64,000 nt of DNA from an uncultured Gemmatimonadota bacterium (GTDB lineage Bacteria > SM23-81 > DAOVCL01). Made by a program: the position numbers and the translations under genes. Every line of letters starts with the position of its first letter. Positions within the stretch are counted from its first letter, which is position 1. Under the pieces are notes generated by a model that saw nothing but the letters and a program-made list of their open reading frames with translations, was not told the origin of the DNA and did not search any database. Positions 24,275 to 59,486 of this stretch are shown piece after piece. The stretch spans positions 85,277 to 149,276 of the forward strand of contig CAZVGK010000003.1 in assembly GCA_964626665.1 (NCBI GenBank), read 5' to 3'.

Positions 24275-24393
24275 CCTTTTTTCGACAGGATAACAGGATT
24301 TATGGGATTAGATCAGGTGACAGTAGTCAGGGACAAGAGGTTTGAAACCGACCCCCGACCTCTGTAAACTGTCAGCCCTATTCACTTATCCCG

Positions 24394-25623
24394 TCAATCC
24401 TGTAAATCCCGTCTAAAATTGTTCTTTTCCTTTATCGTAACCGCATCCACCGGACAGACACTTGCACACAACCCACATCCCACGCATTTCTCCTCATCAA
24501 CCTGAGGAAGCCTATCCTGTCCCTCCAACTTCATCGCCTGATGTCCCCCATCGCGGCAGGCAATATAGCAGACATCACACCTGACGCATAACTCTTCATC
24601 AATCTGAGAAACAACGGATTTTCTTTCCAGTTCCCCTTGAGTAACGATATGGGGGAGGCTTTTCCCGATAATTTCTCTGACCTCGTTGCATCCCCTATCT
24701 TCCAGATAAAAGGCTAAGCCATCGATCAAATCCTCAATTATATCATAGCCATAGTGCATAACGGCAGTGGCAAACTGAATAGTCCTTGCTCCGACGAGGA
24801 GAAATTCAACTGCGTCCTTCCAGGTGGTGGGCCCTCCCGTTCCGGTGATGGGAATATCCACATTCTTGGCGATTTCGGCAATCGTCCTCAGGGTAATCGG
24901 TTTTATTGCTGGCCCACTCATTCCACTATAAGAGGATTTCCCCCTTACATTTGGGTAGGGGGTGAATGAATGGAGATCAATTCCCATCAGTGAGGGGATT
25001 GTATTTGAAGCACAAATGGCATCCCCTCCCCCTCTCTTTACCGCCTTAGCCACATCGACAATGTTTGTGACCTGCGGGGTGATCTTGATGACCACAGGGA
25101 CCCTCTCTGCTGCCTCCTTTACCCATCCAGCGACCTTTTCGGTAGCTGGAATCGATTGGGCAAGCATAGCCCCGGGTTCCTCTCCCATACTCCCTTGTGG
25201 ACAGGAAAACGAGCATTCTATCAGGTCAACCCCAGCACTTTCTAATCTCTTCACTAAACCCTGCCAATCCTCTTTCTCTGACCCCATAATCGATGCCCCC
25301 ACAACCTTATGGGGGAATTCCCTTTTCAAAATTTCTACCCCTTTTTCTATCTCATCGATATGATGCTCGGAGATTAAGTCAATGTTTCCTAAGCCGACTA
25401 CCCTCTTCCCCTCAAAGTTTAGGGATGAGATCATTGGATAGACCAGATCAACTGATGTCCCCTCCACAGATGTGGTCTTTAGGATTGCCCCTGCCCAACC
25501 GGCCTCGAACCCCTGTCTAACCATATCCAGATCATCAGTGGGGGGAGCCGCAGCTAAGATGAAAGGGTTCTCGAATTTCACCCCACAGAAATCCACCCCC
25601 AGTTCAATACCGTGATACTTCAT
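24394..25623 (-). CDS. preA: Dihydropyrimidine dehydrogenase PreA-like subunit (DHOD-family TIM barrel plus C-terminal 2x[4Fe-4S])
   Basis: FMN-binding DHO_dh fold with two C-terminal CxxCxxCxxxCP ferredoxin motifs. Confidence 0.7.
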   Translation of the reverse strand: MKYHGIELGVDFCGVKFENPFILAAAPPTDDLDMVRQGFEAGWAGAILKTTSVEGTSVDLVYPMISSLNFEGKRVVGLGNIDLISEHHIDEIEKGVEILKREFPHKVVGASIMGSEKEDWQGLVKRLESAGVDLIECSFSCPQGSMGEEPGAMLAQSIPATEKVAGWVKEAAERVPVVIKITPQVTNIVDVAKAVKRGGGDAICASNTIPSLMGIDLHSFTPYPNVRGKSSYSGMSGPAIKPITLRTIAEIAKNVDIPITGTGGPTTWKDAVEFLLVGARTIQFATAVMHYGYDIIEDLIDGLAFYLEDRGCNEVREIIGKSLPHIVTQGELERKSVVSQIDEELCVRCDVCYIACRDGGHQAMKLEGQDRLPQVDEEKCVGCGLCASVCPVDAVTIKEKNNFRRDLQD

Positions 25624-25647
25624 TTCCCCCCTTTTTCCCTAAATAAA

Positions 25648-25865
25648 CCACAGATTTCATGGAATCTCTGGAACACGAATGAGACGAATAAACGAATCTA
25701 CACGAATAGATAGATTTACCACGGAAATTCACGGAATTACACGGGAAAAAGGCAATTAAAAATTGAGAATTAAGAATGAAATTTATGCTGGCTATCCCTG
25801 ATCCCCGGAAACTGACTCTTGATCCCTGTTTTTCTGTGCATAGTCCGTGGTTATCCGTGGTGAAG
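25648..25865. repeat. cacgg-rich composite interspersed repeat (~220 nt), copy a
   Basis: The module ccacggaaattcacgg...gcaattaaaaattgagaattaagaatga..ttatgctg..cctgatccccggaaactga..gtccgtggttatccgtggtgaa recurs at 34600-34812, 39577-39798, 43013-43233 and inverted at 60580-61038. It includes ATTCGTGT-type direct repeats with ~9-10 nt periodicity. Confidence 0.7.
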
Positions 25866-26127
25866 TCCTTGTGCAGGGCTCCGCCCTGACAGGGAACCTT
25901 TTTCTCTGACAGGATGACAGGATAAAAAGCAGTTGTCAGTGATCAGGGCCAGGAACTGATCCCCGTCCGCTGAAACCAGTCTCCTCTCCCTTGACGGGGA
26001 AGGGCTAAGGAGAGGGTGAAATAGTTTTCCCCCCTCACCCTAACCCTCTCCCCCCAGAGGAGAGGGAACCGTAAAAGGCAGGAGTCAGTTGTCAGTAGTC
26101 AGTTATCGGGAACAACTCCCAAACCCA

Positions 26128-26196
26128 TGTGCTGTCAGGGCTCTGCCCTGACAGGGAGATCCCTTTGTGGATGATAACATCCACAAAGAGCGCTGG
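26128..26196. repeat. Double-hairpin repeat (gtcagggctctgccctgac plus ctttgtggatgataacatccacaaag)
   Basis: Near-identical copies at 26128-26196, 26418-26487 and 32697-32764; partial at 25878-25900 and 56355-56385. Confidence 0.7.
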
Positions 26197-26572
26197 GATT
26201 CTGTCTAAGTCTTCTCTGACAGGATAACAGGATAAACGGGATTAAGTGAACCTCCCTGCTCCAGGCTGGGCATCCCAAAACAGTCTCCTCCCCCTTTACG
26301 GGGGAGGACTAAGGAGAGGGTGTAAAAAGTAATCCGTTACCTCCCTCACCCTAATCTTCTCCGCTCAATTTCAGTAATATTTATCCAGTCAATCATGTAA
26401 ATCCTGTCTAAATTCCTGTGCTGTCAGGGCTCTGCCCTGACAGGGGGAGTCCTTTTGTGGATGATAACATCCACAAAGAGCACTGGGTTCTTCGTAAAGA
26501 AAACCTTCTTTTCTTGGCTTCATAACACAGATTTTGATAATCCGTGAAATCAGTGGAATCCGTGGCTCCATC

Positions 26573-29500
26573 CTATTTTATCACCACTAGCTTTTTGACG
26601 GCAGTGAAATTACCTGCCTCGAGTCGATATAGATAAACCCCGCTGGCCAATCCTCTGGCATCCCAACGGACTGACCTGTATCCGACCCCCTGATACTCAT
26701 CTACCAATGTCGCCACCTTCTGCCCCAGCAGGTTGTAAATCTCCAGCCTAACCTGAGCATCCCTGGGCAGAGCATACTTGATCTCCGTAGTGGGATTGAA
26801 GGGGTTGGGGTAGTTTTGGGAAAGGGCAAAAGCTTGTGGAATACCAAATACTCCCCTCTCCCTTACCCCCTCTTTCCCTACCACAAACCACCAGGGGGAA
26901 ACATCGCTGTTTGATCCCCAGGTAGTCAGGCTATCCGTGTCCATAGCTACCACCTTCCAATAGTATCTGGTGTTGTCATCTAAGGGAATGCCCGGTGGAA
27001 TTGTAAAGTGAGTATCGGCAGGAGAAATAACCCTTACTCCCTGGGAGAAGGTGCTATCCGGGCTAAGGTAAATCGTATAGGTGACATAGTCCCATAGGTC
27101 ATTATCCGTGGCCTTATGCCAGAGGAAGGTGGGAGTTGTGGAGACGGAATCTATGCCCAGTTCTGGCTCTATGAGGGAAAAGGGATTGGGAGGCTCCAAG
27201 GCTACATTGGTGAAGAATTTCCAGGTATCCGTAGATGTGGTTAAGCTCTCCTTATCTACGGCTACTACCTTCCAGAAGTATTGAGAGTTGTCGGATAACT
27301 CCTCTGTAGGGATATAGCAGTTGCTGTTCACAACCGTGGGGGTAGCCCCGCTGAAGTTGCTGTCCTGGCCAACCCAGAGGAGATAGTGAATAGAGTCGGC
27401 AATATCGTTGTCTGTGGCATTCTCCCAGTAGAAGATAGGGGTGAGGTCAACCTCCACGCTGTTCTGGGTAGGGGTGACCAGGTTGAAGCTGTTGGGGTCT
27501 TCGTTGGCCGTATTAGTGATAAAGGCCTGATAGCCCTCTTCATCCTCCACCGTAGCACCAGCTAAGTCCTGAGCCACTACCTTCCAGTAGTAGAGCTGAT
27601 TGTCCTCCAAGGGGGTCTTGATCTGATAGACGCTCTCTCCTCCCACCTCAACTTGCACCTGAGAGGGGACGTCCTTTCCATAGAAGAGGGTATAGGTAAC
27701 CACATCTCCAGGATCGGGGTCTATGGAGGTCTCCCAATCCAGTATGGGCTTTAGGGTGGTCACCTCACCTCCATCGGCGGGGGTTAGAAGATGGAAGCTA
27801 CCTGGCGGATTGTTTTCAGAGTTGATAATAAAGGAGCTTGAGGCCATCCATTCCCCATTTTCAAAACCATCATAAGCACTTGCCCTCCACCAGTATTGGT
27901 GATTATCCTCCAAAGGGACATCAATCAGCCAAATTGTGGAATCTATCCCCTCTTCTACTCCAGTGGCCGATGTGACCAGGTTGCTCAATAGGCTATCGCT
28001 GTAAACCTCAAAGCCATAGATAAGACTATCGCCTTCGGCATCTGTGCAATTGGAAATGATCAAAGTCACTATGCTATCGCTGATTACCTCTCCTTCTTTA
28101 GGGCTTAAACCCAGGGGGATGGTGGGAAGACTATTCATCCTGAAGGAAAGGCTGGCCCAACTTGCCCATAAATCATCAGTATTCTTCACCCTGGCTCTCA
28201 AATAGTAGGTTTCCACATCAATCAAGGAATCCCCAGCATAGGTTACAAAGGTGTCCGCACTGCTCACCTCTCCGCTATCCCACATCTCGGCCACCGACCA
28301 GTCATCATCAGTTCCCACCTGAACCTGAAAGCCATCTTGAGGCAAGCTTTGCAGATCAGAATATGACCAGGTGATAAGTGGCTGATGACTAACCAGATGC
28401 TCTATATCTTCCGATCCCCCAATATCCAGATTGGAAATGAAGGGATGCGGATTTTCCCCTACGAGAACGGTAGTAAACTTGGTAGAATCCACATCGGAAG
28501 TAATGGTAATCGTCTCCCCAACCGTAGCCCCAATAGATACCCCTTCCACACTCACGGTATCTATCAAAGCAGTTCCTCTGAATATGCCAGAGACTGAATC
28601 AGTTTCCGTAAGAGCAACACTAATATATTGGGTAGTGAAGTTACTGGTTATAGCAACTGTAGTCTGATCGACGCAGATGGAATCGCTGTCTTGACCTTCA
28701 AGCTGGATATACATCGTCGCCCCAATCCACAAATTGGTGGTTAAGTTGCTGGTATAGGTTTCATCCGACTTCAACACAACCGAATACACTGAGTCCGGCT
28801 CACCAAGAGCTGGAGAGGTAAGAATGGGGCTATACAGGACTTTCCCCAAGGTTATGTCATCGTAATAATCCCAAATCCTGGCGTCGATCGAATCCGTATT
28901 AGTTGTCCCCCACCAATTGTTGCTGGCATCAATATCAGTATCTTGATCGTATCCAAGCTTTACCTCATATTTGCCATTAGTGATCAAATTGTTCTGGTTT
29001 ATATGAGCGTCTGAATTTTGGTCACAGTAAATTCCCCCCCACTCAGGAGAGGCAAAATTCCCAGCTATGAGGTTATTACTAAGGGTCAGAGAGCACCACT
29101 TACAAGAAATTGCAACCCCTAAGTTCGCAGTTATAGTATTGTTCGTAATAGACAAAGTTGAGTGGGAGCAACCGAGGGCAACCCCTGAATTTCCAGTTAT
29201 GATATTCTCGAGAATAGCTAAAGGGGCATATGAACATTGAATGCCGCCACCACGATTTTTGCTTATAGTGTTGCCTGTAATAGGTGATGCTCCATGATAG
29301 TAATAGACACCACCACCAGAGTAAGCAGAGTTCCCGGTTATTATGTTGCCCGTGATAGACGGGGAGGAATACTCACAATACACGCCACCACCTTTACCAT
29401 CACTTGAGGCAAAGTTTCCCGTTATTGTATTGTCAACGATATTGGGGGACGATTCGAAATAGCAAGAGATGCCACCACCATTGCCATGATAGGAAGTTTC

Positions 29501-30232
29501 AGTTATCGTATTTCTATCTATGATGTTCTCAGTGATAATTGGTGACGAATGGTCTTCGCATTCAATACCAGCCCCACCCATTTTGGCGAGATTTCCTTCT
29601 ATAGTGTTACTGGAGATAATCGGAGAAGAATACTGATAACAGCGGATACCACCGCCATAAGCGTAAGTGAGGTTCAAATTATTGTGCTGAATGTAATTTC
29701 CTATAATAATGGGGGACGAATTGTGACAGTTAACGGCGGGGCCAGAACTTTCGGTTATACTACTATGGATTATAAGCGGAGAGGTGTAATCGCAATAGAC
29801 AGCTCCATCGCCGCCGCCATATTCAATTCTGGAGTATTCAATAATACATCCACTTACATAGTTGCCCAGTGAATCCAAAACGGCATCAACGCTGGTATCA
29901 ACAAACTTCATACTTCCCCAATCCCCTGGCGCTGGTGTGGCATTGTTAGAAGTAAACAGAATGCTATCCGTTACTGTCCCCCTGGCTATCAATTCACCGC
30001 CAATGTTTAGAGATAGGCTATCGTTGAATTTCACCGTTACCCCAGGCTCAATGGTTAGGGTTGCTCTTTCAGCCACCTCCACTGTTCCCACCACAATATA
30101 TGGACTACCAGCCACCGTCCAGATTGTATTAGAGTTGATACCACCGCTAACCTCCGTATCGGCAATGGCCAATTGGACTCCAAAGCTGAGCAAAAACACC
30201 ATTGCCACCAAACTTACTTCAATCTTTCTCAT
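26573..30232 (-). CDS. Giant T9SS cargo protein: signal peptide, parallel beta-helix (PbH1) repeats, several FN3-like domains, C-terminal sorting domain
   Basis: MRKIEVSLVAMVFLLSFGVQLAIA signal; ..ITGN.. beta-helix repeats; recurring YYWKVVA.D FN3 motifs. The C-terminus NYPNPFNPTTEIKYALP...VRWDARGLASGVYLYRL is a T9SS CTD. Confidence 0.8.
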   Translation of the reverse strand: MRKIEVSLVAMVFLLSFGVQLAIADTEVSGGINSNTIWTVAGSPYIVVGTVEVAERATLTIEPGVTVKFNDSLSLNIGGELIARGTVTDSILFTSNNATPAPGDWGSMKFVDTSVDAVLDSLGNYVSGCIIEYSRIEYGGGDGAVYCDYTSPLIIHSSITESSGPAVNCHNSSPIIIGNYIQHNNLNLTYAYGGGIRCYQYSSPIISSNTIEGNLAKMGGAGIECEDHSSPIITENIIDRNTITETSYHGNGGGISCYFESSPNIVDNTITGNFASSDGKGGGVYCEYSSPSITGNIITGNSAYSGGGVYYYHGASPITGNTISKNRGGGIQCSYAPLAILENIITGNSGVALGCSHSTLSITNNTITANLGVAISCKWCSLTLSNNLIAGNFASPEWGGIYCDQNSDAHINQNNLITNGKYEVKLGYDQDTDIDASNNWWGTTNTDSIDARIWDYYDDITLGKVLYSPILTSPALGEPDSVYSVVLKSDETYTSNLTTNLWIGATMYIQLEGQDSDSICVDQTTVAITSNFTTQYISVALTETDSVSGIFRGTALIDTVSVEGVSIGATVGETITITSDVDSTKFTTVLVGENPHPFISNLDIGGSEDIEHLVSHQPLITWSYSDLQSLPQDGFQVQVGTDDDWSVAEMWDSGEVSSADTFVTYAGDSLIDVETYYLRARVKNTDDLWASWASLSFRMNSLPTIPLGLSPKEGEVISDSIVTLIISNCTDAEGDSLIYGFEVYSDSLLSNLVTSATGVEEGIDSTIWLIDVPLEDNHQYWWRASAYDGFENGEWMASSSFIINSENNPPGSFHLLTPADGGEVTTLKPILDWETSIDPDPGDVVTYTLFYGKDVPSQVQVEVGGESVYQIKTPLEDNQLYYWKVVAQDLAGATVEDEEGYQAFITNTANEDPNSFNLVTPTQNSVEVDLTPIFYWENATDNDIADSIHYLLWVGQDSNFSGATPTVVNSNCYIPTEELSDNSQYFWKVVAVDKESLTTSTDTWKFFTNVALEPPNPFSLIEPELGIDSVSTTPTFLWHKATDNDLWDYVTYTIYLSPDSTFSQGVRVISPADTHFTIPPGIPLDDNTRYYWKVVAMDTDSLTTWGSNSDVSPWWFVVGKEGVRERGVFGIPQAFALSQNYPNPFNPTTEIKYALPRDAQVRLEIYNLLGQKVATLVDEYQGVGYRSVRWDARGLASGVYLYRLEAGNFTAVKKLVVIK

Positions 30233-30332
30233 CTTACTCCTCTCCTTTCTTGGTTTTTCAGGGATTCTGCATTTTATTTGTCTTCTACTTGCTCCTATAT
30301 TTCTAACTTTTAACAGCAAGCCGATGTGGTTT

Positions 30333-31157
30333 TCATATAACGAAAAAACTCGCCTGTGTTGCGATATCTTTGATTAATGTCTTGGCTTTCACTCTACGAT
30401 GGGTAACAATAAATTCAAACATTTCAAAAAGGTCCTCTGTTATCTGTATAAGTCTTTCATTCGATGCGTAATTATGAGGTTGTCCATGTTTAAAAAGGTA
30501 TGTTCGCCCTCGGCAGGTCACTTTAAGATCCGATTCGTCTCTGGCAAAGTATACTCCATTATTATGTATGCAATTTCTAATAGCTGATAACATTTTAAGA
30601 GCTTCCCGAAAAATATGAGGATCAGGTAAGCTTAAATGCTGAAAAAGACTTAGCCAGACTCTGCTGAACTCCTTATTCGCTTTATTACCAGGATCAATTG
30701 CTCTTAATATCGAACGCATTGCAGACTCTACTACGCTGGAAAGCGAGAAGATAAATCCGCTCCGTATATACACTTCGAATTGTTTCCCTACTATACAAGC
30801 GTCTGATTTAGAAGCGGGAGACATAATTTTTTGTACCCAATTTATGTCTAATGCATAATGAGCAGCATAATACAGTGCAAGATCACACGATCTTATGAGA
30901 TTACAGAGCGCCCAAAATAAACGAATCCGGATATCCTGATTAGCATCCCAGGAATAGTTTTGTAGAAGTCTCTTGCTTTGATTTTCGATGGTGACCCGTA
31001 AAGCCTCAAAATCTTTCATGCATTTAAGAAGGTTTGTCGGCGTTGGCATGATCACAACGGTATTTCGGCTCCCTAATCCAGATATTGACGGGAAATTTGA
31101 GGAGGAACTTCTATTTTCATCTCCCTCTGTACCGGTTTTGAAATTGTCATTTCTCAT
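30333..31157 (-). CDS. Uncharacterised protein, translationally coupled partner of the NERD-like nuclease
   Basis: 274 aa with no confident domain. Low GC. A 1-nt gap to the upstream gene implies coupling. Has an AIRNCIHNNG (R-x3-H) motif, which is not the canonical HEPN Rx4-6H. Confidence 0.5.
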   Translation of the reverse strand: MRNDNFKTGTEGDENRSSSSNFPSISGLGSRNTVVIMPTPTNLLKCMKDFEALRVTIENQSKRLLQNYSWDANQDIRIRLFWALCNLIRSCDLALYYAAHYALDINWVQKIMSPASKSDACIVGKQFEVYIRSGFIFSLSSVVESAMRSILRAIDPGNKANKEFSRVWLSLFQHLSLPDPHIFREALKMLSAIRNCIHNNGVYFARDESDLKVTCRGRTYLFKHGQPHNYASNERLIQITEDLFEMFEFIVTHRRVKAKTLIKDIATQASFFVI

Positions 31158-31158
31158 T

Positions 31159-31980
31159 TTACTTTTCCACTCCCAAAATTATTGGGTTAGAATAGTCTAT
31201 TTCAATAGCTAAGCTTCGTAAGTATTCAATTAGCATACCTCGCTTACCTTCAGATCTTAGCCTGTCTTTAAAACTTTGATCGCTATGTCCTAAGATGATT
31301 TCTAAATAATCAATTAGAGTGGCATAGAAAACCAAAAAAGCAATATCATATTGTGATCTGTCCGCTTTCTTGAGAGAATAATATATATGCTCTGGAGACT
31401 TTCGTAGTAGTCTACTGCTTGAACCACTTTCAATTCCGAAGATAATGCTAAATTGCTTATTTCCGATACAATGGATGCCATCTAAGGCATATCCATTCTT
31501 TTCTGGTGGACATTGACGGATATACTTTTGCACAGTTTTTTCCAAAACTGAGCCGAAACAAAATAAATCACATTTACAAAGATTAGCTGGAGGAGAACTC
31601 GATGTATTGCCCACCATTTCTTTTATAGTTTTCATGCTATCGAGTGTCGAAAAAAATTCCTTTTTATTGAGCTTAGTTTTGACTTCAATTGCATATATTG
31701 CTGATTCTGGCCTAACAACAACAATGTCACCAAATTGAAACAGAGGAGCATAGCGAGATGCCTCATGAATGAGAATATCTATTTGAGGACTGACTGTATT
31801 TTTGTCAACATAAACAAACCCAGACGATACTGCGAAATGAGTAGGAACATAGTCTCTTAGAAAGTTACTAAGAAGCCTTTCTGCCCAAAGTCCTTTCGTG
31901 CCAGGATGTGTGATGAAGCTTTTAATCTGGTTTAACTGACTATTGAAGCTTTTGTCTACTTCTGCAAAATAGTCTTTCAT
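31159..31980 (-). CDS. NERD/Mrr-like PD-(D/E)xK nuclease-fold protein
   Basis: GTKGLWAERLLSNFLRDYVP...VSPQIDILIHE...AIYAIEVKTKL follows the NERD pattern (G..GE....L...y.v...eIDhvvi...gifviEvK), i.e. a D...E.K catalytic-core arrangement. Low GC. Confidence 0.5.
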   Translation of the reverse strand: MKDYFAEVDKSFNSQLNQIKSFITHPGTKGLWAERLLSNFLRDYVPTHFAVSSGFVYVDKNTVSPQIDILIHEASRYAPLFQFGDIVVVRPESAIYAIEVKTKLNKKEFFSTLDSMKTIKEMVGNTSSSPPANLCKCDLFCFGSVLEKTVQKYIRQCPPEKNGYALDGIHCIGNKQFSIIFGIESGSSSRLLRKSPEHIYYSLKKADRSQYDIAFLVFYATLIDYLEIILGHSDQSFKDRLRSEGKRGMLIEYLRSLAIEIDYSNPIILGVEK

Positions 31981-32307
31981 CTCTTACTTGTGTTAATGTT
32001 TGATGCCATAGCGCTGGTAGACAGATAGTGCTATTGCTTGAGAACTTACCAGATAACAAAATATACTGTAAGACCCGCTCCAATTACACACTACTTCTCT
32101 TCTCGGTATGGCTTTTGAGCGGGCGATATGGGGTCATATCTTTATTCTTGACTTTCCAAATTCTAATTACCAACTTAATTCCCTTTGTCAGTTGCCGGGT
32201 AATGCCTTTTAAACAGGGCTTTAGCCCTGTCCCTGCAATTCATTGACTATGTGAAGAGATCTCCTGACCTCGACTTCCATCGGCATCGGAAGATGCCTCC
32301 TACACTC

Positions 32308-32449
32308 TTCTACCCGGCTTTAGCCGGGGTTGAGAGGGCTTTAGCCCGTTTGGAGTGCTGTGATTCCTGTCACAGCTTCCGTCAGCAGGAGTTGACGCAC
32401 TCCATAGAGGGCCTAAAGACCCTTAACCCGCACTGAAGTGCGGTAGAAG
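32308..32449. mobile_element. REPIN/MITE-like element, copy 1
   Basis: Terminal hairpin modules ttctacc-CGGCtttaGCCGG and CGCACTgaAGTGCG-gtagaa (CTAC/GTAG-flanked). Core three-way junction ggagtgc[ctgtga..tcacag][gtcagc..gttgac]gcactcc. Other copies at 34859-34954 (truncated), 49567-49693 (inverted), 59487-59662, 62455-62580 (inverted) and a fragment at 60743-60800. Confidence 0.65.
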
Positions 32450-32903
32450 TCTTCTACTCAAGGAAACCTGAAAAGGTTTGAAAAAAAAGACCTTGCAAAA
32501 TTGTAGGCCAGAGATCAGTTTACAGGGATCGAAGGTCAGGAGAAATCCGTTACACCTATCAACCGACACCTGACGAATGACTGACTACTGATCCCTGACC
32601 CCTGTGAACCGTTAGCTTAATTCAAAAATACCATGAAAAAAGGCCCTGTCAAGGGGAAACTTCCCCCCTGCTACAGGGTCTTTCTGTGTTGTCAGGGCTT
32701 TGCCCTGACAGAGGAAGTCTTCTCGTGGATGATAACATCCACAAAGAGCACTGGGGTTGTTTTTCGACAGGATAACAGGATTTACAGGATTTTAGTTTTA
32801 TCCCGATCATTCTGTCAATCCCGTCTAATAAAAGGGAATTCTCCCTGCTTCTCAGTGCCGTCATGGCAGGACTCCTGAGGGATGGAAAATAGAAATTCCT
32901 GAG

Positions 32904-32927
32904 CCGTCAGATGCCCTCATCTGACGG
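32904..32927. repeat. Palindromic hairpin family cggtcagatgccctcatctgacgg
   Basis: Copies at 32904-32927, 54109-54133, 59749-59768 (truncated) and variant 59785-59809. The 54040-54135 and 59695-59770 copies share a longer ~90-nt context. Confidence 0.7.
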
Positions 32928-33123
32928 GGTTTTAGTAGCAGGAGAGGGATTTTGCCACCCCATGTTAGCGGCACATTTGAATTGGGGGACCTGTCTGCGT
33001 GCCTGCCTGAGCGAGAACGCTCGCAGTCAGGCCTGCCTGTACCAGTCTGCCTGTGCGTCGCACGCAGACAGGCACGGCAGACAGACACCGCACAAGCAGG
33101 GAGGTCTCCAGACCTTTCAAGAG

Positions 33124-33147
33124 CTGTCAGGAGGTAACTCCTGACAG
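33124..33147. repeat. Palindromic hairpin family gtcaggaggtaactcctgac
   Basis: Copies at 18610-18637 (imperfect), 18685-18708, 33124-33147 and 41463-41486. Confidence 0.7.
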
Positions 33148-33185
33148 CACGCTTTTAGTGCCCTTCCCTGACGGCGAGAGGGGAG

Positions 33186-33210
33186 GGTGGCAGAATCGGG
33201 GTTCTGCCAC
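33186..33210. repeat. Palindromic hairpin family ggtggcagaatcggggttctgccacc
   Basis: Copies at 33186-33210, 34815-34840, 54175-54204; variants ccgtcagaaccccgattctgacgg at 56203-56230 and 62785-62808. Confidence 0.7.
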
Positions 33211-33270
33211 ATCGGGCTTAATTTATCCTGTCAATCCAGTAAATCCTGTCCGAAAAGCAGTTGTCAGTAG

Positions 33271-34584
33271 TCAGTTATCGGGAACGACTCCCGACCCCTG
33301 CAAATAGGTAGCTATTGCCTGGGCGGCCTTTTTGCCTTCGGCCACCGATTGGACAACGGTTCTCCCCTTTTTTGACACGATTATATCCCCCCCAGCAAAG
33401 ACTCCTTCCCTTGAGGTCATCATATCCTCATTTACCACCAAGTATCCTTTAGCTGTCTTTAATCCCTTAAACAGCGGACTCTCCTCCGGTGCCTGACCCA
33501 CTGCTTCAATTATTGTATCTCCGATTAAAGTTAAACTGCTCCCCTTGATTTTAACTGCATTCTCCGGAACAAACCTTCCCGGAATTCTCCAATCGATTTT
33601 AATTGCCTCCAGCCCTTTAACCCTTCCATTATTGCCCATAATTCTTAAGGGCATAAACCTGGGATGGATATTTACTCCCTCATTCTCCGCCTGGCTTATC
33701 TCCTCCCTGAAGGCCGGCAGTTCATCTGGCCCTTCCAGACAGACCAGGTCCACATGTTTGACCCCTACCCTTAATGCGGAGCAGGCACAATCAATTGCCA
33801 CACTCCCGCCACCGATCACAATTGCCCTTTCACCCACCCTTACCCTCTGAGGATCCTCATTGACCTCTCTCAGGAATTCTATTGCAGACAGAACCCACTT
33901 TAGCTCCTCACCTGGAATCCGACAGAACAACGGTTTCCCCAATCCCACGCCAATAAATATGGCCTTAAACCCCGAACTGAATAGATTATCCAGGCTACCA
34001 ATCGCTCTATTTCCTTTAACTTTCAGTCCCAATTTTTTGACATAGTCGATTTCTTGCTTGACCATCCTCTTAGAGAGTCGATAGGAGGGGATTCCATAGG
34101 TGAGAACTCCACCTAACTTGTCCCTTTTCTCAAAGATCGTCACCTCAAATCCTTGAACTGCCAGTTCGGCGGCACAGGAGAGACCGGCCGGTCCCGCACC
34201 GATTACGGCCACGTTCACCCTGTTTTTCTTGATCTGAGGAAACGATTTAAACTTCGCTGTATATTCCCTCTCTGCCGCGAATCTTTGCAAGTCCCCAATC
34301 CTAATTGGGGTAGAAAGCTTCGTGGATGAGCATTCCTTCTCGCACAAAGCCTCTACAGGGCAGACAGTTCCGCAGACCCCGGCCAAGATGTTCTTCTCCT
34401 TGATCAGGTTTATGGCTCGCCGGTAATTTTCAAATCTGATTGCCCTGATGAACTTCTTTACATCAATACCTGCTGGACAACCTCGGTTACAAGGGGCATC
34501 CTCGCATAGTAAACACCGAGATGCCTCCAGCACGGCCTGAGCCTCGGTCATCGGCTCTTTCGTTTCCTTAAAGCTTAACTTCAT
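33271..34584 (-). CDS. preT: GltD-like NAD(P)H-dependent oxidoreductase (dihydropyrimidine dehydrogenase PreT-like subunit)
   Basis: N-terminal 2x Cys clusters (CLLCEDAPCNRGCP; CGTVCPVEALCEKEC); FAD/NAD Rossmann motifs VAVIGAGPAGL and IVIGGGSVAIDCA. Confidence 0.7.
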   Translation of the reverse strand: MKLSFKETKEPMTEAQAVLEASRCLLCEDAPCNRGCPAGIDVKKFIRAIRFENYRRAINLIKEKNILAGVCGTVCPVEALCEKECSSTKLSTPIRIGDLQRFAAEREYTAKFKSFPQIKKNRVNVAVIGAGPAGLSCAAELAVQGFEVTIFEKRDKLGGVLTYGIPSYRLSKRMVKQEIDYVKKLGLKVKGNRAIGSLDNLFSSGFKAIFIGVGLGKPLFCRIPGEELKWVLSAIEFLREVNEDPQRVRVGERAIVIGGGSVAIDCACSALRVGVKHVDLVCLEGPDELPAFREEISQAENEGVNIHPRFMPLRIMGNNGRVKGLEAIKIDWRIPGRFVPENAVKIKGSSLTLIGDTIIEAVGQAPEESPLFKGLKTAKGYLVVNEDMMTSREGVFAGGDIIVSKKGRTVVQSVAEGKKAAQAIATYLQGSGVVPDN

Positions 34585-35077
34585 AATTATCTCAAATTAC
34601 CACGGAATTTCACGGAGAAAAGCAATTATGAATTGAGAATGAAGAATGAAGAATGAAGCTTATGCTGTTATTCCTGATCCCCGTAGTTTGATCCCTAACC
34701 TCTGTTTTTTCGTGGTAATCCGTGGTGATCAGTGGTAAAATATCAGCTACAGATTACACGGAAAAATGCAATTAAGAATTGAGAATTAAGAATGAGGCTT
34801 ATGCTGATCAGCGAGGTGGCAGAATCCCGATTCTGCCACCCTCCCATTGTTTTCTGATTTTCTACCCGGTTTTAGCCGGGGGTTCTTAGGGCTTAAGCCC
34901 TTTCAACGCACTTGGATAGAAAGGCCCCAACCCTGCACTAAAGTGCGGTAGAAACCTTCCACCCAGCTTTAGCTGAGCTATCAAATCCTCGATCTGACAG
35001 CAGATATCCTGATCCCTGTAAACTGTTACCTCTATTTTGACATTCATCCTGTCAATCCAGTTAATCCTGTCTAATAA

Positions 35078-36805
35078 TTATTCTTTCTCAAAAAGTGGGA
35101 CGAGCTGGAACTTTACCACATCTATTATCCCCTTGTCGCTTACTCTAATCTCCGGAATTACGGGCAAAGCAAGGAAGGAGAGGACCATAAATGGCTCCTT
35201 TACCGTAGCACCCAATCCCTGGCAGGCCAAATTCAAGGCCTGTATTTTGGCTTCAACTTCCTCCAGTTTCTTCCCCGTCATCAAACCGGCAATGGGAAGG
35301 GGCAATTCTTCAATGACCTGGCCACCTTCCACCACAACCAATCCACCCTGTAGTTTTACGATCTTTACCGCCGCGGTATACATATCATCATCATTGGTCC
35401 CCACAACAACTATATTGTGTGAGTCATGAGCGATTGATGAGGCAATGGCCCCCCTCTTTAATCCTATCCCCTGGACAAACCCCAAACCAGTGTGGCCAGA
35501 GGCCAAATGCCTCTCAATGACAGCCACTTTCAAGATGTCCCTCCCTGGATCAGAAAGGGCCTCTCCACCCTCTATTTTCACCTCCTCTATGCGTTTTCTC
35601 GTAATTAGCTGATCAGGGACGATTTGAATCACCTTAGCGCGTTGTCCCTTGGCCACAACCTTGAAATGTTCCTTCTCTATCCAGGCCGTATTCACCGTGC
35701 TCCTCAAGGGGACAAAGACCGGCTTGATCATTCCGGGCAACATTTGGCCATCAGAGGCCACAAGTTGACCATCTTTGTAAACGGAGATTATATTGAAATC
35801 CCGAAAGTTGTCAAAGACAACCAGATCTGCCTTATATCCAGGGGCAATAGCACCTAAGTCTTTGAGTTTAAAGTATTCTGCACCATTTAGGGTGGCCATC
35901 TGGATGGCGGTTAGCGGATCTGTCCCCGATTCGATGGCTGTTTTGACCATATAATTGATGTGCCCCTCTCGAAGGAGATCATAGGGATGCCGATCATCGG
36001 TGACAAAGAAACACTTACGCGATGTATTCCTTCCTTTGGACTTCACCAAAGGGAGAAGGGTCTTTAGGTTCTTGGCCGTGGTTCCTTCCCTAATCATCAC
36101 ATACATCCCATCCCTCAGCTTTTCCCTGGCCTCCTCTAAGGTAGTTGACTCATGGTCGGATTTAATCCCGGCGGCGATGTAGGCATTTAGCTCCTTACCC
36201 GTCAACCGGGGGGCATGACCGTCGATAAGCTTATCCCCGGCAGCCTTAATCTTCTCCAAAACCTCCGCTGTTCTATGGATAACCCCAGGGTAATTCATCA
36301 TCTCGCCCAGCCCCAGGATCCGCTTATTGTCGAGAAGAAGCTTAAGGTCAAAGGCAGAGAGCCTGGCCCCAGAGGTTTCCATCTCGGTAGCAGGCACACA
36401 GGAGGAGAGCATAAGGAAGACATTAAGGGGAAGGTTGCTGCTTGTCTCCAGCATATACTTTATCCCTTCCAAACCAAGGACATTGGCAATCTCATGGGGA
36501 TCAATGATTACGGTAGTTGTACCCAAAGGGACAACAGCCCGGGCATACTCCGGGGGGGGGACCATCGCGCTTTCTATATGCACATGGCCATCGAGCAGGC
36601 CGGGGGCAAGGTATTTCCCTCGCAGATCGACCACCCTTTTTGCCTTGTAGTTGCCAATTCCAGCAATCCTCCCTTTGTAGAGGGCTACATTACCCTCATA
36701 GATCTCCTCGGCAAATACATTGACAACCTTCGCATTTTTTAACAAGAGGTCACAGGGCCTCTCCCCCCCTGCAGCCTCGATCATCTCCTCAAGCTTAGGA
36801 TTCAT
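35078..36805 (-). CDS. ade: Adenine deaminase
   Basis: Amidohydrolase fold with LLDGHVHIES metal-binding motif and the adenine deaminase C-terminal domain. The likely start MNPKLEEMIEAAGG overlaps the upstream stop (ATGA). Confidence 0.75.
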   Translation of the reverse strand: MNPKLEEMIEAAGGERPCDLLLKNAKVVNVFAEEIYEGNVALYKGRIAGIGNYKAKRVVDLRGKYLAPGLLDGHVHIESAMVPPPEYARAVVPLGTTTVIIDPHEIANVLGLEGIKYMLETSSNLPLNVFLMLSSCVPATEMETSGARLSAFDLKLLLDNKRILGLGEMMNYPGVIHRTAEVLEKIKAAGDKLIDGHAPRLTGKELNAYIAAGIKSDHESTTLEEAREKLRDGMYVMIREGTTAKNLKTLLPLVKSKGRNTSRKCFFVTDDRHPYDLLREGHINYMVKTAIESGTDPLTAIQMATLNGAEYFKLKDLGAIAPGYKADLVVFDNFRDFNIISVYKDGQLVASDGQMLPGMIKPVFVPLRSTVNTAWIEKEHFKVVAKGQRAKVIQIVPDQLITRKRIEEVKIEGGEALSDPGRDILKVAVIERHLASGHTGLGFVQGIGLKRGAIASSIAHDSHNIVVVGTNDDDMYTAAVKIVKLQGGLVVVEGGQVIEELPLPIAGLMTGKKLEEVEAKIQALNLACQGLGATVKEPFMVLSFLALPVIPEIRVSDKGIIDVVKFQLVPLFEKE

Positions 36806-39105
36806 AGTCTCCTTTTCTCCCTTCTCTGGTTTATTGCCTGGAGAACCTTTGCTGGGGTAAAAGGTGTCTTCCGCATCCTCACCCCGATAGCATCCCAAAT
36901 AGCATTAGCTATTGCCGGACAGGGGCCATTTATGTTTACCTCCCCCACGCTCTTTGCGCCAAAAGGCCCTGACGGTTCATAGGAGGGGATCAAGTTAACC
37001 TTTATCTCCGGGATATCCATCGCCGAAAAAATCTTATAATCCCGAAAGGACCCGTTCATCATCTTGCCATTTTTATCAAAGATAAACTCCTCGGTAAGGG
37101 CATAGCTAATACCGTTTATAATCGACCCCTCCACCTGTCCCTCGGCAAGTTTGGGGTTAATTACGGTGCCACAATCGACGCCGGCCACATATCTCTCCAC
37201 CTTTATCTTCCCGGTCCCTTTATCTATGAGGATCTCCACAAAATGGGCAGCAAATGGAGGTGGTGACTGAGGAGAGATGTGAGACATAGAACCAATTATC
37301 TGGTGTTGCTCCCTCTCATAGAGGGAATGGTAAGCTATCTCCTGATAGGAGACCGATCTCCCCGTTCTCTTGCTCATCACCTGGGCAACTTGGACAATGA
37401 GGTTTTCCTTTACCTCATTTAACATTTCTCCTCCGATGCGCATGATCTCTTTGAGAACCTTTTGGGCTGTTTTGAGAACTGCCCCCCCGGAAATGTAGGT
37501 TGTGGAGGAGGCATAGGCCCCCACATCAAAGGGGGTGAAATCCGTATCCGATGAATAAACGATAATCTTCCCGGTGGGCACCTTCAGGGCTTCCGCGGCG
37601 ATCTGGGCAAGGATGGTATCCGACCCTGTTCCCAAATCGGTTGCCCCCACAAGGAGGTTGAAGGAACCATCCTCGTTTAACTTGATCAACGCTGCCCCCA
37701 TATCCACATTGGGGATTCCGGAACCCTGCATCATAATGGCCGAGCCATATCCCCTTTTTAGCTTTCCCTCTTCCTTTGGCTTTTTCCTCCATTCAATGAG
37801 CTTAAAACCCTCCTCTATACATTGGGGAAGTTTGCAAGAGCCAATTACCTGTGAAACCCCCTTCTTCCCTTCACCTAAAACCTCAAATAGCGGCGATGTC
37901 TCCCCCTCCTTTATGTGGACCTTTTTCCTCAACTCTACTGGTTCCATCCCTATCTTTTCCGCTAGTTCGTCGAGCATAGACTCGGTGGCAAAGTAACCCT
38001 GGGTGGCCCCATATCCCCGATAGGCACCGGCAACTGGCAGGTTGGTATAGACCACCTTCCCTTGAAACCGCACATTAGGGCAACGATAGAGGGGCAAAAC
38101 CTTGCTTCCCGTGTTATACATCACGGTAGTGGCGTGCGAGCCATAGGCCCCGGTGTTGGAGAGAATGCGCATATCCAATGCGGTGAGGGTCCCATCCCTC
38201 TTCACCCCAGCTTTAAGCAAGGTGATGATGGGATGCCTCGTCCTGGAGATAAACTCCTCCTCCCTGCTCAGTTCGATTTTGGCCGGTCTACCTGTCTGTA
38301 AGGTAACCCAACCAGCCACATAGTCGAGGTAAACCTCCTGCTTGGTGCCGAAGCCTCCCCCTATTCTGGGCTTGATTACCCTTATTTTCTGAATGGGAAT
38401 TCCCAAGACATTTGCGCATATCCTCCTGGTATGGAAGGGAACTTGGGTGGAGGATCTAATCACCAACCGCCCATTCTCGTCCAGCCAGGTGATGACGATA
38501 TGTGGTTCAATTGGGGTATGTTGGGCATAATGAACCTCATATCTATTTTCAAGGACAGCATCTGCCTCCTGAAAACCCTTATTTAGGTCTCCGACCTCTA
38601 CCTCCACCTCTCCGACAAGGTTGCGTTGCGGATCGAGGATACCCTGAGAATCCTCCTCGTCGTGAATGACCGGCGCCCCCTCCCTTAATGCCTCCTCGGG
38701 GTTGAACACAGGGGGGAGGGGATCGTATTCCACCCTAATTTTCCCGATGGCCTCAGAGGCCGTCTCCGGGGAGTCGGCAGCCACGCAGGCCACCCTATCA
38801 CCCACAAACCTTACTTTTCTGTCAAACATTACGCTATCATAAGGTGAGGGCTCAGGATACCCCTGTCCCGCAGTGGTATGGGGAACCCGAGGGACATTTT
38901 TATAGGAGAGAATAAGGGCAACCCCAGCCATCTTCTCTGCCTCTCTGGTATCAATACCCTTGATTATGGCGTGAGGATGAGGGCTCCTCAGAAATTTGAT
39001 AAAGAGCATACCCTTAAGGTCTATATCATCGGCAAATACCGGATTGCCCTTAACTAAGGCATATCCGTCGACCCGGTGGACATTTTTACCCACTTCCTTA
39101 AACAT
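36802..39105 (-). CDS. Molybdopterin-dependent hydroxylase large subunit (xanthine dehydrogenase/CoxL family), system 1
   Basis: 767-aa product with the Ald_Xan_dh_C/C2 architecture (GGGFG, Mo-binding region). Confidence 0.85.
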   Translation of the reverse strand: MFKEVGKNVHRVDGYALVKGNPVFADDIDLKGMLFIKFLRSPHPHAIIKGIDTREAEKMAGVALILSYKNVPRVPHTTAGQGYPEPSPYDSVMFDRKVRFVGDRVACVAADSPETASEAIGKIRVEYDPLPPVFNPEEALREGAPVIHDEEDSQGILDPQRNLVGEVEVEVGDLNKGFQEADAVLENRYEVHYAQHTPIEPHIVITWLDENGRLVIRSSTQVPFHTRRICANVLGIPIQKIRVIKPRIGGGFGTKQEVYLDYVAGWVTLQTGRPAKIELSREEEFISRTRHPIITLLKAGVKRDGTLTALDMRILSNTGAYGSHATTVMYNTGSKVLPLYRCPNVRFQGKVVYTNLPVAGAYRGYGATQGYFATESMLDELAEKIGMEPVELRKKVHIKEGETSPLFEVLGEGKKGVSQVIGSCKLPQCIEEGFKLIEWRKKPKEEGKLKRGYGSAIMMQGSGIPNVDMGAALIKLNEDGSFNLLVGATDLGTGSDTILAQIAAEALKVPTGKIIVYSSDTDFTPFDVGAYASSTTYISGGAVLKTAQKVLKEIMRIGGEMLNEVKENLIVQVAQVMSKRTGRSVSYQEIAYHSLYEREQHQIIGSMSHISPQSPPPFAAHFVEILIDKGTGKIKVERYVAGVDCGTVINPKLAEGQVEGSIINGISYALTEEFIFDKNGKMMNGSFRDYKIFSAMDIPEIKVNLIPSYEPSGPFGAKSVGEVNINGPCPAIANAIWDAIGVRMRKTPFTPAKVLQAINQRREKRRL

Positions 39106-39565
39106 CTTCGTTAAGGATCTCCCCTGCCTTTTTTATTGCCTTGATAATCTTGACATACCCGGTGCACCTACAGAGGTTGCCGGAGATGGCCTCTTTTATC
39201 TCCTCCTCTGTGGGATGTGGGTTTTCCCTGAGGAGGGCCTGAGCTGCCAGGATCATCCCCGGGGTGCAGAACCCACATTGCACAGCGCCCTCATCAAGAA
39301 ATGCCTGCTGAATCGGGTGAAGCTCATCCCAGTTGGTCATCCCTTCCAGGGTTTCGATGCTATGACCGGCAGCCTGAGGGGCAAACAGGAGACAGGATTT
39401 GGCCAATTTCCCATCCAAGATCACCGAGCAGGCCCCGCATTCACCCGTCTCACACCCTCTTTTTACGCTCTTATACCCCTCCCTTCTCAATAGGTTAAGG
39501 AGAATCTCACCGGGAGAGGTGTTTAATCTCTTCAAAACTCCATTTATGGTTAGTTCGATTTGCAT
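39098..39565 (-). CDS. [2Fe-2S]-binding small subunit (CoxS/XdhC-type), system 1
   Basis: CETGECGACSV and CGFCTPG...CRCTGY motifs. Confidence 0.9.
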   Translation of the reverse strand: MQIELTINGVLKRLNTSPGEILLNLLRREGYKSVKRGCETGECGACSVILDGKLAKSCLLFAPQAAGHSIETLEGMTNWDELHPIQQAFLDEGAVQCGFCTPGMILAAQALLRENPHPTEEEIKEAISGNLCRCTGYVKIIKAIKKAGEILNEDV

Positions 39566-39576
39566 AGGTCTATAGC

Positions 39577-39798
39577 CACGGATTGCACGGATTCACCGAA
39601 TCTTTGGAACACGAATAAACAAATCTACACGAATAAATGATCTACCACGGAAATTCACGGAAAAAAGCAATTATGAATTGAGAATTAAAAATTAAAAATA
39701 AGTATGCTGACTATTCCTGAGCCCCGGAAACTGACTCCCGATCTCTGAAAAACTGATCCCTGTTTTTCCCTGCATAGTCCGTGGTTATCCGTGGTGAA
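39577..39798. repeat. cacgg-rich composite repeat, copy c, lying between the M and S subunit genes
   Basis: Same family as 25648-25865. Its terminal segment encodes the last residues (IIHHG-stop) of the FAD subunit gene. Confidence 0.65.
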
Positions 39799-41497: not shown

Positions 41498-41590
41498 AAT
41501 CTGTCTCAATCTGCGTTCACCCCGTTAAATAATTAAAAATAAACACCATCACACTCTCAAAATGGTTTTTATTTAACAGGGTTAATCTGC
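41498..41590. mobile_element. MITE-like element with TIR ctgcgttcaccccgttaaataa
   Basis: Left end tctgcgttcaccccgttaaataatt, right end tttatttaacagggttaatctgcgtccc. A second, larger copy lies at 10565-10700. The right arm encodes the XdhC C-terminus (GTQINPVK-stop). Confidence 0.55.
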
Positions 41591-42357: not shown

Positions 42358-42519
42358 CAGTATTTATATCTCACCACGAAGCCACCGAATAGCATCTTAC
42401 AATGGTCAATTAGCAATTAGCAAGTTAAAATGAACTAAAGATGGGAAATGCAGTAGTATCCATTGATAATTGTTAATTAATCATTAACCATTTCTTTGTC
42501 AATTAGTGGCTATCCGTGG

Positions 42520-42996: not shown

Positions 42997-43012
42997 TTTT
43001 GATAACAACCAA

Positions 43013-43233
43013 CCACGGAACCTCACGGAACTACACGGATGTTTTTATCAACGAATTCATTACTCATTTTTAATCTTTTTCCGTGCTACTCCGTGGTCAT
43101 CCCTGGTGAATCTACCACGGAATCTCACGGAGAAAAGCAATTATGAATTGAGAATTAAGAACGAAATTTATGCTGTTATTCCTGATTTCTGTAGACTGAT
43201 CCTTGATTTTGTTTTTCTGTGCTAGTCCGTGGT
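43013..43233. repeat. cacgg-rich composite repeat, copy d
   Basis: Same family as 25648-25865. It overlaps the 3' end of the large-subunit gene and encodes its last ~20 aa (ISPRTSTEKQNQGSVYRNQE-stop). Confidence 0.65.
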
Positions 43234-45488: not shown

Positions 45489-45517
45489 CTTATGGGGAAG
45501 TCTCCTATTTTTAAGAA

Positions 45518-59454: not shown

Positions 59455-59486
59455 CACCCAGCAAATAATCCAATACAAAAACCACT

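Follow-up and report, generated by a model that had tools for sequence, protein, structure and literature searches.

What is the short CACGG-rich repeat that recurs upstream of catabolic genes in the window analyzed here, and why are the last codons of some neighboring genes read from it? The window is a stretch of 64,000 nt from an uncultured Gemmatimonadota bacterium (assembly GCA_964626665.1, contig CAZVGK010000003.1, positions 85,277 to 149,276). The original prediction took the repeat for a ~220-nt cassette in five copies, with an array resembling response-regulator binding sites and possibly a promoter serving the downstream catabolic genes. We consider it probable (at roughly 0.7) that the element is instead a non-autonomous miniature, similar to miniature inverted-repeat transposable elements (MITEs), of array-bounded gene cassettes that encode a small GxxExxY (PDDEXK_3) nuclease, and that it was mobilized along the lines set out below.

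The core element was defined by pairwise repeat finding, multiple alignment and an nhmmer profile, and is ~140-165 nt long. In the window, this profile recovered four copies that are complete, one that is interrupted and a half copy. The 17-nt end motif TCCGTGANNTTCCGTGG occurs six times in the window at ≤1 mismatch against none in 100 shuffles, which confirms that the repeats are real. The complete copies are all on the minus strand (nhmmer E-values between 1e-41 and 1e-47). They lie upstream of preA (25709-25868; E=2e-45, and by alignment), upstream of preT (34592-34744; E=3e-47; this copy includes a run of CATTCTT heptamers), between the gene for the flavin adenine dinucleotide (FAD) subunit M and a [2Fe-2S] gene (39637-39802; E=4e-46), and between the large-subunit gene L′ and a second [2Fe-2S] gene, S′ (43100-43239; E=2e-41, and by alignment with locus L186). 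The half copy (34753-34853, minus strand; E=3e-13, model positions 38-138) consists of the middle and a degenerate 3′ array and stands in tandem upstream of the preT copy, while the interrupted copy (60778-60975, plus strand; nhmmer) is part of a nest of repeats upstream of a patatin gene. Every window copy is in sense orientation to its downstream gene, in line with the fixed orientation noted before, and the distance from the core 3′ end to that gene is 85 nt for preA, 7 nt for preT, 71 and 73 nt for the two [2Fe-2S] genes and 91 nt for patatin. The copies of the original prediction are therefore real, but their coordinates lump the ~150-nt core with neighboring solo arrays. The repeat it placed at 43013-43233 is present, but comprises two different elements (43013-43099 and 43100-43239). 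Its inverted copy at 60580-61038 does contain parts of the CACGG element on the plus strand, within a nest that is interrupted by other repeats.

In gene orientation, the element starts with (GTAAC)TTCACCACGGATAACCACGGACTATGCACAGAAAAA and finishes with CCCGTGTAATTCCGTGAATTTCCGTGGT(GAACTGTTAC); in the copy upstream of preA the 5′ and 3′ ends are TTCACCACGGATAACCACGGACTATGCACAGAAAAA and CCCGTGTAATTCCGTGAATTTCCGTGGTAAAT. The interior is of low complexity, with GGGATCAG repeats, CAGCATAAA and TTAATTCTCAATTCNTAATTGC. At each end stand three 7-nt CCACGGA-type units with a pitch of ~10 nt, one end being the inverted copy of the other. The short direct repeats at 9-10-bp pitch that had been noted earlier are confirmed. 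The units match between the two ends, but the inter-unit spacers do not, and the resulting terminal inverted repeats of ~35-40 nt are imperfect (termini GTAAC..TTCACCAC and GTGGTGAACTGTTAC). The cores have no conserved open reading frame (ORF). A long interrupted hairpin is predicted for both strands (z-scores of -2.3 and -3.5), and in the 25709-25868 copy it is closed by the two arrays. At the gathering threshold no Rfam family, including those of rRNA, had a match anywhere in the window.

The element supplies the last codons and stop of the genes M and L′, as the original prediction had proposed. M ends in ...GIIHHG, of which IHHG and the stop are read from ATTCACCACGGATAA, the first 18 nt of the 39637-39802 element. 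L′ ends in ISPRTSTEKQNQGSVYRNQE, a 20-aa tail that is encoded together with its stop by the 43100-43239 element and that the paralogue L lacks. Orthologues without the insertion have other C-termini: M of locus L122 ends in ...EFPA, and more distant L′ homologues carry unrelated ends. Locus L186, of which L′ is 83% identical, holds the same element at the same L′-S′ site with both CCACGGA units kept, and there L′ ends in ISPRMTTD. Relative to L186, exactly one 10-nt CCACGGA unit is deleted from the window copy; as a consequence the frame is shifted past a TAG and the 8-aa tail becomes the 20-aa tail. The M and L′ tails are therefore by-products of insertion and differ from strain to strain, and gene callers will misplace gene ends and starts near the element. 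A related situation was observed in a relative from candidate division WOR-3 (L120, 13585-13630), where M ends in ...TIRHG on CGCCACGGATAACCACGGAGTGGCACGGAAAAG. The three-unit 5′ array is kept at this orthologous site and other hairpin repeats are found instead of the remainder of the element, so that it represents either a solo end or a decayed copy.

Outside the window, a scan of the collection for the 3′ array returned at least 115 metagenome loci. Approximately 30 non-redundant full copies, often in tandem, were confirmed by profile. A strict composite pattern matched only once in the genome collection, on a 3.7-kb contig binned as Zixibacteria. The genes 3′ of the element at the metagenome loci include those for an HD-domain signaling protein, ATP synthase c, FolE2, a TPR protein, an epimerase, a cargo protein of the type IX secretion system (T9SS) and a phospholipid methyltransferase (PEMT), and one copy (L004) has no downstream gene. 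The copies occupy stop-to-start spacers, mostly in sense orientation: the element is sense in ~14 intergenic regions between co-directional genes and antisense in 3, and it is also found inside operons, between gene junctions of the overlapping type. Thus, it is not confined to the promoters of a coherent gene set. The element is a dispersed multi-copy repeat, and the conservation of its non-repeat interior between copies means that these arose by copy-and-paste descent and not as convergent operator sites.

Signs of insertion were found as well. Direct repeats abut both element termini in two copies with clean flanks, in L036/L022 (GGAATATGA, 9 bp) and in L086 (GAAAAAAA, 8 bp), and in silico excision of the L036 element restores an ATGA overlap of the upstream stop with the folE2 start, behind a GAGGAGG Shine-Dalgarno sequence. 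In a systematic search, most candidate target duplications, such as AAAAGATTA around the 43239 copy, proved to be chance matches that do not abut the element, and these two alone were accepted. Comparison with related loci revealed empty sites. The junction between the NTP_transf_3 gene and L′ is empty in L122, with host genes that overlap by ATGA, where the window holds a full nuclease cassette, and L186 lacks the 43013-43099 element at the orthologous site. The AAGATGAGC found at both junctions of the window cassette was not accepted as a duplication, the Met-Ser start of both ORFs being the better explanation.

This full parent-type cassette (45511-45958, minus strand) had been missed in the original prediction. 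Its ORF (45540-45926) encodes a 128-aa GxxExxY/PDDEXK_3 protein (PF13366, 1e-42; TIGR04256, 4e-45). The 5′ array AACCACAAGATTAACACAAGATG carries the ORF's own ATG and encodes the ...FRNHKINTR tail of the upstream NTP_transf_3 gene, and the 3′ array ATCTCGTGAAAATCTTGTGTAATCTTGTGGTT is located ~30 nt before the L′ ATG (45488). Both flanks can be aligned, one unit after another, with the two ends of the CACGG element; the ends of the element and of the GxxExxY cassettes are homologous. We observed that the mechanical L′ ORF begins with a TTG (45524) that falls within the 3′ array of the cassette; L′ probably starts at the ATG at 45488 (MSFIGKSEI...), which matches database protein P0001 (770 aa) and orthologues.

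A typical cassette consists of an ORF for a ~125-aa GxxExxY (PDDEXK_3) protein between inverted arrays of 2-4 short units. The unit type is CCACGGA in the window element, and CACGAAT, CACAAGAT, CACAGAT, GACGCAGAT or CACAGAG elsewhere. Eight loci that were retrieved solely via the CACGG 3′ array pattern carry GxxExxY genes with matching inverted flanking arrays; these include cassettes of the CACGG type (L112, L078, L046 and L053) and of the CACGAAT/ATTCGTG type (L084, L092 and L044). Loci picked by protein similarity alone, which are free of ascertainment by array pattern, repeat this layout in Bacteroides finegoldii (L127; radA, cassette, FAD protein, with flanks TTCACCACAGAGGACGCAGAGGACACGGAGG ... 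CTCTGTGACCTCTGTGTCCTCTGTGGTGAA), Bernardetia (L128), Treponema (L125) and Methanophagales (L139/L130; in a Methanophagales archaeon the order is Fe-ADH, cassette, UPF0179). Moreover, the 5′ and 3′ unit types co-vary over 15 cassettes, with 8.5 inverted 6-mers shared between own ends versus 3.4 with the ends of others, a value not attained in any of 20,000 permutations. The GxxExxY proteins retain the catalytic E..D..ExK and QxxxY residues. This family comprises 27,744 clusters at 50% identity (E≤1e-3), and its function is listed as unknown (PMC3424549).

The step from cassette to miniature can be followed at intermediate stages. The element at 43013-43099 (minus strand; delimited by the L186 comparison) is a CACGG-type GxxExxY mini-cassette from which the ORF is deleted: a 5′ array is followed by ATGAGTAAT (the start and two codons), GAATTCGTTGA(TAA) (the last codons and stop) and a 3′ array that finishes 13 nt before the S′ ATG. 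For comparison, the corresponding cassette end in L046 is AGAATTCGTTGATAAAATACATCTGTG. A tandem mini-element in L078 retains only the last codons of the ORF. The cassette and the miniature are linked by these ORF-deleted intermediates. In addition, the content of the orthologous L′-S′ site differs between relatives: in L124 it is a GxxExxY cassette that is intact and has CACAGAT units, in L120 a decayed one with GACGCAGAT units, in L122 a short remnant, and in both the window and L186 the miniature element.

Several further observations concern the nuclease cassettes. The GxxExxY protein encoded in the window has 66-73% identity with proteins from Methanophagales archaea and KSB1 bacteria (P0139, P0154, P0205, P0194 and P0215), and CACAAGAT-type units are common to the window cassette and the Methanophagales loci L139/L130. 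Together, this protein identity and the common unit type point to transfer of whole cassettes between domains. Several metagenome contigs of 514-582 nt (L133-L138) consist of a single GxxExxY cassette, and the high reported coverage of two of them (91x and 130x) is the pattern expected of collapsed multi-copy repeats. Many of the top GxxExxY matches (P0243-P0247 and others) are 250-295 aa long with two matched stretches, and represent either tandem double-domain proteins or read-through tandem cassettes. In L078, L084 and L090/L092, the ORF after the GxxExxY cassette starts with MKRNYYITKNGRLKRQDNTL... and is Cas1-like by eye, and the ORF after a further CACGG-type array starts with MYYILVYDI... 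and is Cas2-like by eye. If this likeness holds, the junctions of cas operons are colonized too.

The model that goes with the miniature-cassette reading is as follows. When an element is inserted within the last codons of an upstream gene, translation continues into its 5′ array, which provides a new tail and stop, and gain or loss of one unit subsequently alters the tail. The arrays would be the recognition sites of a trans-acting protein, given that the units are conserved while the spacers are unconstrained, and that the unit type co-varies cassette by cassette; this protein would most likely be the nuclease encoded by a cassette of matching unit type. We infer from these sequences that the GxxExxY nuclease may be the mobilizer, which would move or copy the element, leave target duplications of 8-9 bp, and have a preference for gene junctions or resident arrays. 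Pairing of the two arrays in the operon transcript would give a long imperfect hairpin, which, by analogy with the intervening sequences of 23S rRNA, is probably trimmed by RNase III, so that an intercistronic insertion would be tolerated.

A number of observations weigh against this reading. No recombinase is encoded, the ~80-nt interior of the 150-nt element is of low complexity and not recognizably derived from an ORF, and no intact GxxExxY gene of the CACGG type was found on the contigs of the window organism itself, the window cassette being of the CACAAGAT type. Target duplications were found for only 2 of ~25 copies, most of which abut other arrays, and no clear duplication was found around full cassettes. 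Identical GxxExxY proteins across contexts proved to be the same locus in different samples, and provide no direct proof of recent transposition. On viral contigs, a single-protein scan gave no match and an alignment-based scan gave 37 distant relatives, nearly all of them without arrays. With regard to the RNA, the inter-unit spacers of the MITEs are not complementary, and transitions are not biased to G-U in the sense RNA (24 versus 40 for the MITEs, 19 versus 8 for the cassettes). For the miniature, the RNA-stem part of the model, which relies on predicted folds, is weakly supported. The sense bias could also result from selection rather than from the insertion mechanism. Lastly, genes for Y1 transposases (PF01797, IS200-type) are located within a few kb of the cassettes of L122 (19620-19920) and L139 (1-182). 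The two loci are unrelated, one bacterial and one archaeal; this proximity may be a coincidence, or it may reveal an alternative mobilizing enzyme.

An enzyme of that kind is central to the explanation that the element is an ordinary MITE moved in trans by an unlinked transposase, either from an insertion sequence (IS) that makes 8-9-bp duplications or of the Y1 type associated with repetitive extragenic palindromic (REP) sequences (RAYT), with the small ORFs as passengers like those of mobile insertion cassettes (MICs). Both the observed duplications, whose length is typical of DDE transposases, and the nearby Y1 genes are in agreement with this, and to our knowledge no 125-aa hydrolytic nuclease catalyzes strand transfer. 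However, no transposase was found within the 64-kb window, and Y1 enzymes do not make target duplications. Furthermore, arrays from distant bacterial phyla and from an archaeon enclose the same two small ORF families (GxxExxY and, as described below, a four-helix-bundle family), and their unit types co-vary cassette by cassette, a pattern more readily accounted for if the arrays are read by the ORF product. We therefore regard an unlinked transposase as unlikely, though it deserves to be kept in mind. The probability is lower still that the element was selected by the host as an RNA element, in which pairing of the arrays yields a hairpin between cistrons that undergoes processing or stabilizes the transcript and thereby tunes how strongly the neighboring cistrons are expressed relative to each other, with spread at the DNA level being secondary, as for REP sequences, bacterial interspersed mosaic elements (BIMEs) or Correia elements. 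The long predicted hairpins (z-scores of -2.3 to -3.5), the strongly sense orientation, the position kept at the same operon junction among relatives with 70-83% identical proteins, and the precedent of RNase III processing of intervening-sequence stems (PMC4990558) all fit this explanation. The non-complementary spacers of the miniature, the lack of a sense-strand G-U bias and the absence of Rfam matches in the window do not, and close relatives differ freely in how many units and which elements they have at a given junction.

Least probable of all, and in our view very improbable, is the cis-regulatory module of the original prediction, in which a response regulator would bind to the arrays and a catabolic regulon would be driven from an outward promoter. 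It derives its appeal from the window itself, where all five copies are upstream and in sense, four of them in the purine/pyrimidine catabolic cluster, and where the unit pitch is about one helical turn, as in OmpR/PhoB-type sites. Elsewhere, the downstream genes are functionally unrelated or, in L004, absent, copies are antisense at three loci or sit at operon junctions, the interior is conserved by descent, and the units, which form inverted arrays at either end of the element, are also found on both sides of nuclease genes of several bacterial phyla and of an archaeon. A scan for sigma-70-like promoters, a model that does not cover FCB-type promoters, gave 33 hits versus 27 expected region-wide and none that is conserved inside the element, and a terminator scan showed neither enrichment nor a conserved site inside it. 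One sigma-70-like site (TTGACA-16-AATAAT, 11/12; 39798-39825, minus strand) straddles the last M codons just upstream of the element 5′ end; it is outside the repeat, and similar scores arise by chance in the region. The link to the purine/pyrimidine genes of the window is incidental. Hardly any junction of this cluster lacks an array-bounded element of some type. The repeats should not be taken as a purine/pyrimidine regulon signal.

In the window, the genes between 20 and 50 kb are on the minus strand, and Pfam and NCBIfam agree with the gene names of the original prediction. Besides preA (24394-25623), preT (33271-34584) and the gene for adenine deaminase (35078-36898), these are the xanthine-dehydrogenase-like genes, two sets overall: L (36802-39105), S (39098-39565), M (39785-40582), M′ (40579-41316), XdhC (41569-42357), S′ (42520-43026) and L′ (43176-45524). 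The patatin gene (61067-62044) is on the plus strand. T9SS components (Por_Secre_tail, PorV-like) put the organism in the Fibrobacteres-Chlorobi-Bacteroidetes (FCB) group, and the nearest named relative of L′ is from a candidate division WOR-3 metagenome-assembled genome (79% identity). The window sequence is identical to contigs of the salt-marsh series of Joint Genome Institute (JGI) metagenomes. The normally adjacent partners preT and preA are ~7.6 kb apart (25624-33270); the gap holds a gene for a 1248-aa T9SS-sorted beta-helix protein (26573-30319), an ORF (30333-31157), a DUF6602 gene (31159-31980) and two repeat-filled spacers.

Other arrays surround the core copies and were identified by their sequence. 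Two stacked solo 3′-type arrays (25648-25708, minus strand) lie between the core and the preA ribosome-binding site, with four ATTCGTG units and then ATTCCATGAAATCTGTGG, and a similar stack (39577-39636, minus strand) has three ATTCGTG units and then ATTCGGTGAATCCGTGCAATCCGTGGC. The original prediction had counted ATTCGTG-like repeats as part of the cassette. Such arrays are indeed present directly 3′ of the core in three of the five copies (25671-25708, 39600-39636 and 60971-61012), but they are the 3′ end of another element type, since ATTCGTG units flank the CACGAAT-type GxxExxY genes in L084, L092 and L044. A third array, ATTCAGTGAAATCTGTG..CCGTGGC, comes after the ATTCGTG array, and both represent stacked solo 3′ ends of other unit types, outside the core. 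The nest upstream of patatin (60580-61045, plus strand; delineated by repeat pairs, alignment, nhmmer and sequence) is a composite. It begins with outer 5′ arrays (60580-60655), followed by unrelated hairpin repeats, the middle of the CACGG element (60778-60842), an insertion, the CACGG 3′ array (60931-60970), the ATTCGTG array (60971-61012) and an outer 3′ array (61013-61045).

Some array-bounded element is present at nearly every junction of the purine/pyrimidine gene cluster. The S′-XdhC junction is filled by a degenerate one (42358-42522, minus strand; recognized by sequence and a weak nhmmer match), with a 5′ array TTAGCCACGGATAGCCACTAAT that begins at the S′ stop and a 3′ array ATTCGGTGGCTTCGTGGTGAG that finishes ~15 nt before the XdhC ATG, and homologous weak matches were found at this junction in L120 and L124. 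An apparent S′ C-terminus IISHG was rejected, as S′ ends in ...GDN with its TAG abutting the array. A solo 5′-type array, GCCACGGATTCCACTGATTTCACGGAT (26539-26572, minus strand), immediately follows the stop codon of the T9SS cargo gene. Units of a different type (GACAGGAT / ATCCTGTC) were observed at 24275-24393, 26212-26243/26379-26411, 32760-32828, 33221-33253, 35042-35077 and 53990-54022, in arrays that abut stops and starts, for example past the adenine deaminase stop and in the spacer between preA and the dihydropyrimidinase gene. A second dispersed repeat family of ~100-130 nt, unrelated to the CACGG element, occurs in both orientations (32326-32461, 34860-34966, 49594-49697, 59481-59617 and 62442-62582) and has paired hairpins (TATGGAGTGCGTCAAC..GTTGACGCA.., GGGCTTTAGCCC and CCGGCTAAAGCCGG). 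Small hairpin repeats are found as CTGTCAGGGCTCTGCCCTGACAG..GTGGATGATAACATCCAC and GGTGGCAGAATCGGGGTTCTGCCACC (26123-26197, 26413-26487 and 32681-32755; 33180-33215, 34809-34845 and 54173-54208). Altogether, the intergenic regions of the window are unusually long (0.5-1.3 kb) and composed almost wholly of small repeats.

How does the element compare with known systems? With the MITEs of other bacteria (Correia/NEMIS of Neisseria, Nezha of cyanobacteria and RPE of Rickettsia) it shares a length of ~150 nt, the lack of coding capacity, terminal inverted repeats, many dispersed copies, insertion near or into gene ends with altered protein termini, and a predicted mRNA hairpin, and two of its copies have putative target duplications. 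It differs in that its ends are arrays of 7-nt units rather than simple inverted repeats, that its apparent parent carries a small nuclease gene and no DDE transposase, and that it strongly prefers stop-to-start spacers in sense orientation. MICs, such as MIC231 of Bacillus cereus, have transposon-type ends around a non-transposase passenger gene, and ORF-less miniatures of them exist, a layout like that of the window element family. However, the MIC ends are common to an identified mobilizing IS (IS231), whereas no such IS was seen here, and the arrays enclose one and the same ORF family in bacterial phyla far apart from each other and in an archaeon. The REP/BIME/REPIN-RAYT systems also consist of abundant intergenic repeats in mosaic combinations, often co-transcribed and with strand bias. 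REPs are short G+C-rich palindromes, whereas the repeats here are non-palindromic, A+T-rich unit arrays in elements of 140-500 nt, with putative target duplications and without a RAYT/Y1 gene in the window. Operator arrays of the OmpR/PhoB type have direct 7-nt repeats at ~10-bp pitch too, whereas the window arrays are inverted pairs at the ends of a copy-pasted element, next to unrelated genes and around nuclease ORFs in many taxa. Finally, integron gene cassettes are bounded by attC and inserted at one attI beside intI, unlike the present insertions, which are dispersed over many operon junctions in a window without an integrase.

The closest described analogue, in terms of architecture, is the intervening sequence (IVS) of 23S rRNA, as known from Coxiella, Leptospira and Salmonella. 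The Coxiella IVS is described as a selfish 428-nt element whose terminal inverted repeats pair to give a 28-bp stem that is cut by RNase III, and its decaying S23p ORF starts directly after three tandem GACAGAT heptamers, the number of which differs from strain to strain (PMC4990558). Shared features are a size of 0.1-0.5 kb, inverted-repeat boundaries, tandem units right before the ORF start, an ORF that is often decaying or lost, unit copy numbers that vary between strains, and sense insertion within a transcribed unit; IVSs have long been suspected to be mobile (PMC4990558). An IVS-type inverted-repeat stem around a small ORF, with tandem units before its start, is present in the parent cassettes, while the miniature keeps the arrays only. 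In contrast to IVSs, the window elements lie between protein-coding genes and not in helix 25 or 45 of the 23S rRNA, the parent ORF encodes a PD-(D/E)XK nuclease (GxxExxY/PDDEXK_3) and not an S23p/four-helix-bundle protein, the unit pitch is 9-10 nt rather than 7, and RNase III excision would here rest on predicted hairpins.

A generic scan of the loci for small ORFs with inverted flank words connected the two systems further. In L105 (933-1313, minus strand), an ORF of the TIGR02436 four-helix-bundle (S23p) family (E 3e-23) is located between protein genes and within inverted ACCTAAA/TTTAGGT arrays, of which the 3′ array ends with GGTGGTTTAAATG at the start of the next gene. Therefore, such arrays can carry either of two small ORF families, and the window element represents the form that has no ORF. 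The element itself is of a known kind (MITE), while its link to GxxExxY and four-helix-bundle cassettes and to rRNA IVSs appears to be undescribed; no description of arrays associated with GxxExxY cassettes was found in the literature searched, the coverage of which was incomplete. The element ties a very large, uncharacterized family of small nucleases to a defined genomic behavior, namely sense insertion, array boundaries and miniature derivatives, and links it by architecture to the IVSs of 23S rRNA, whose origin and mobility have been open questions since the early 1990s. As a tentative proposal, to which we give somewhat less than even odds, the array-bracketed GxxExxY and four-helix-bundle (S23p/TIGR02436) genes may constitute one previously unrecognized class of mobile mini-cassettes in Bacteria and Archaea. 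The encoded protein would read its own arrays, and the class would colonize operon stop-to-start spacers and rRNA helices, be the source of the 23S IVSs, and spawn MITE families like CACGG. If true, this would provide both a biological role for the GxxExxY family and an answer to the origin of rRNA intervening sequences.

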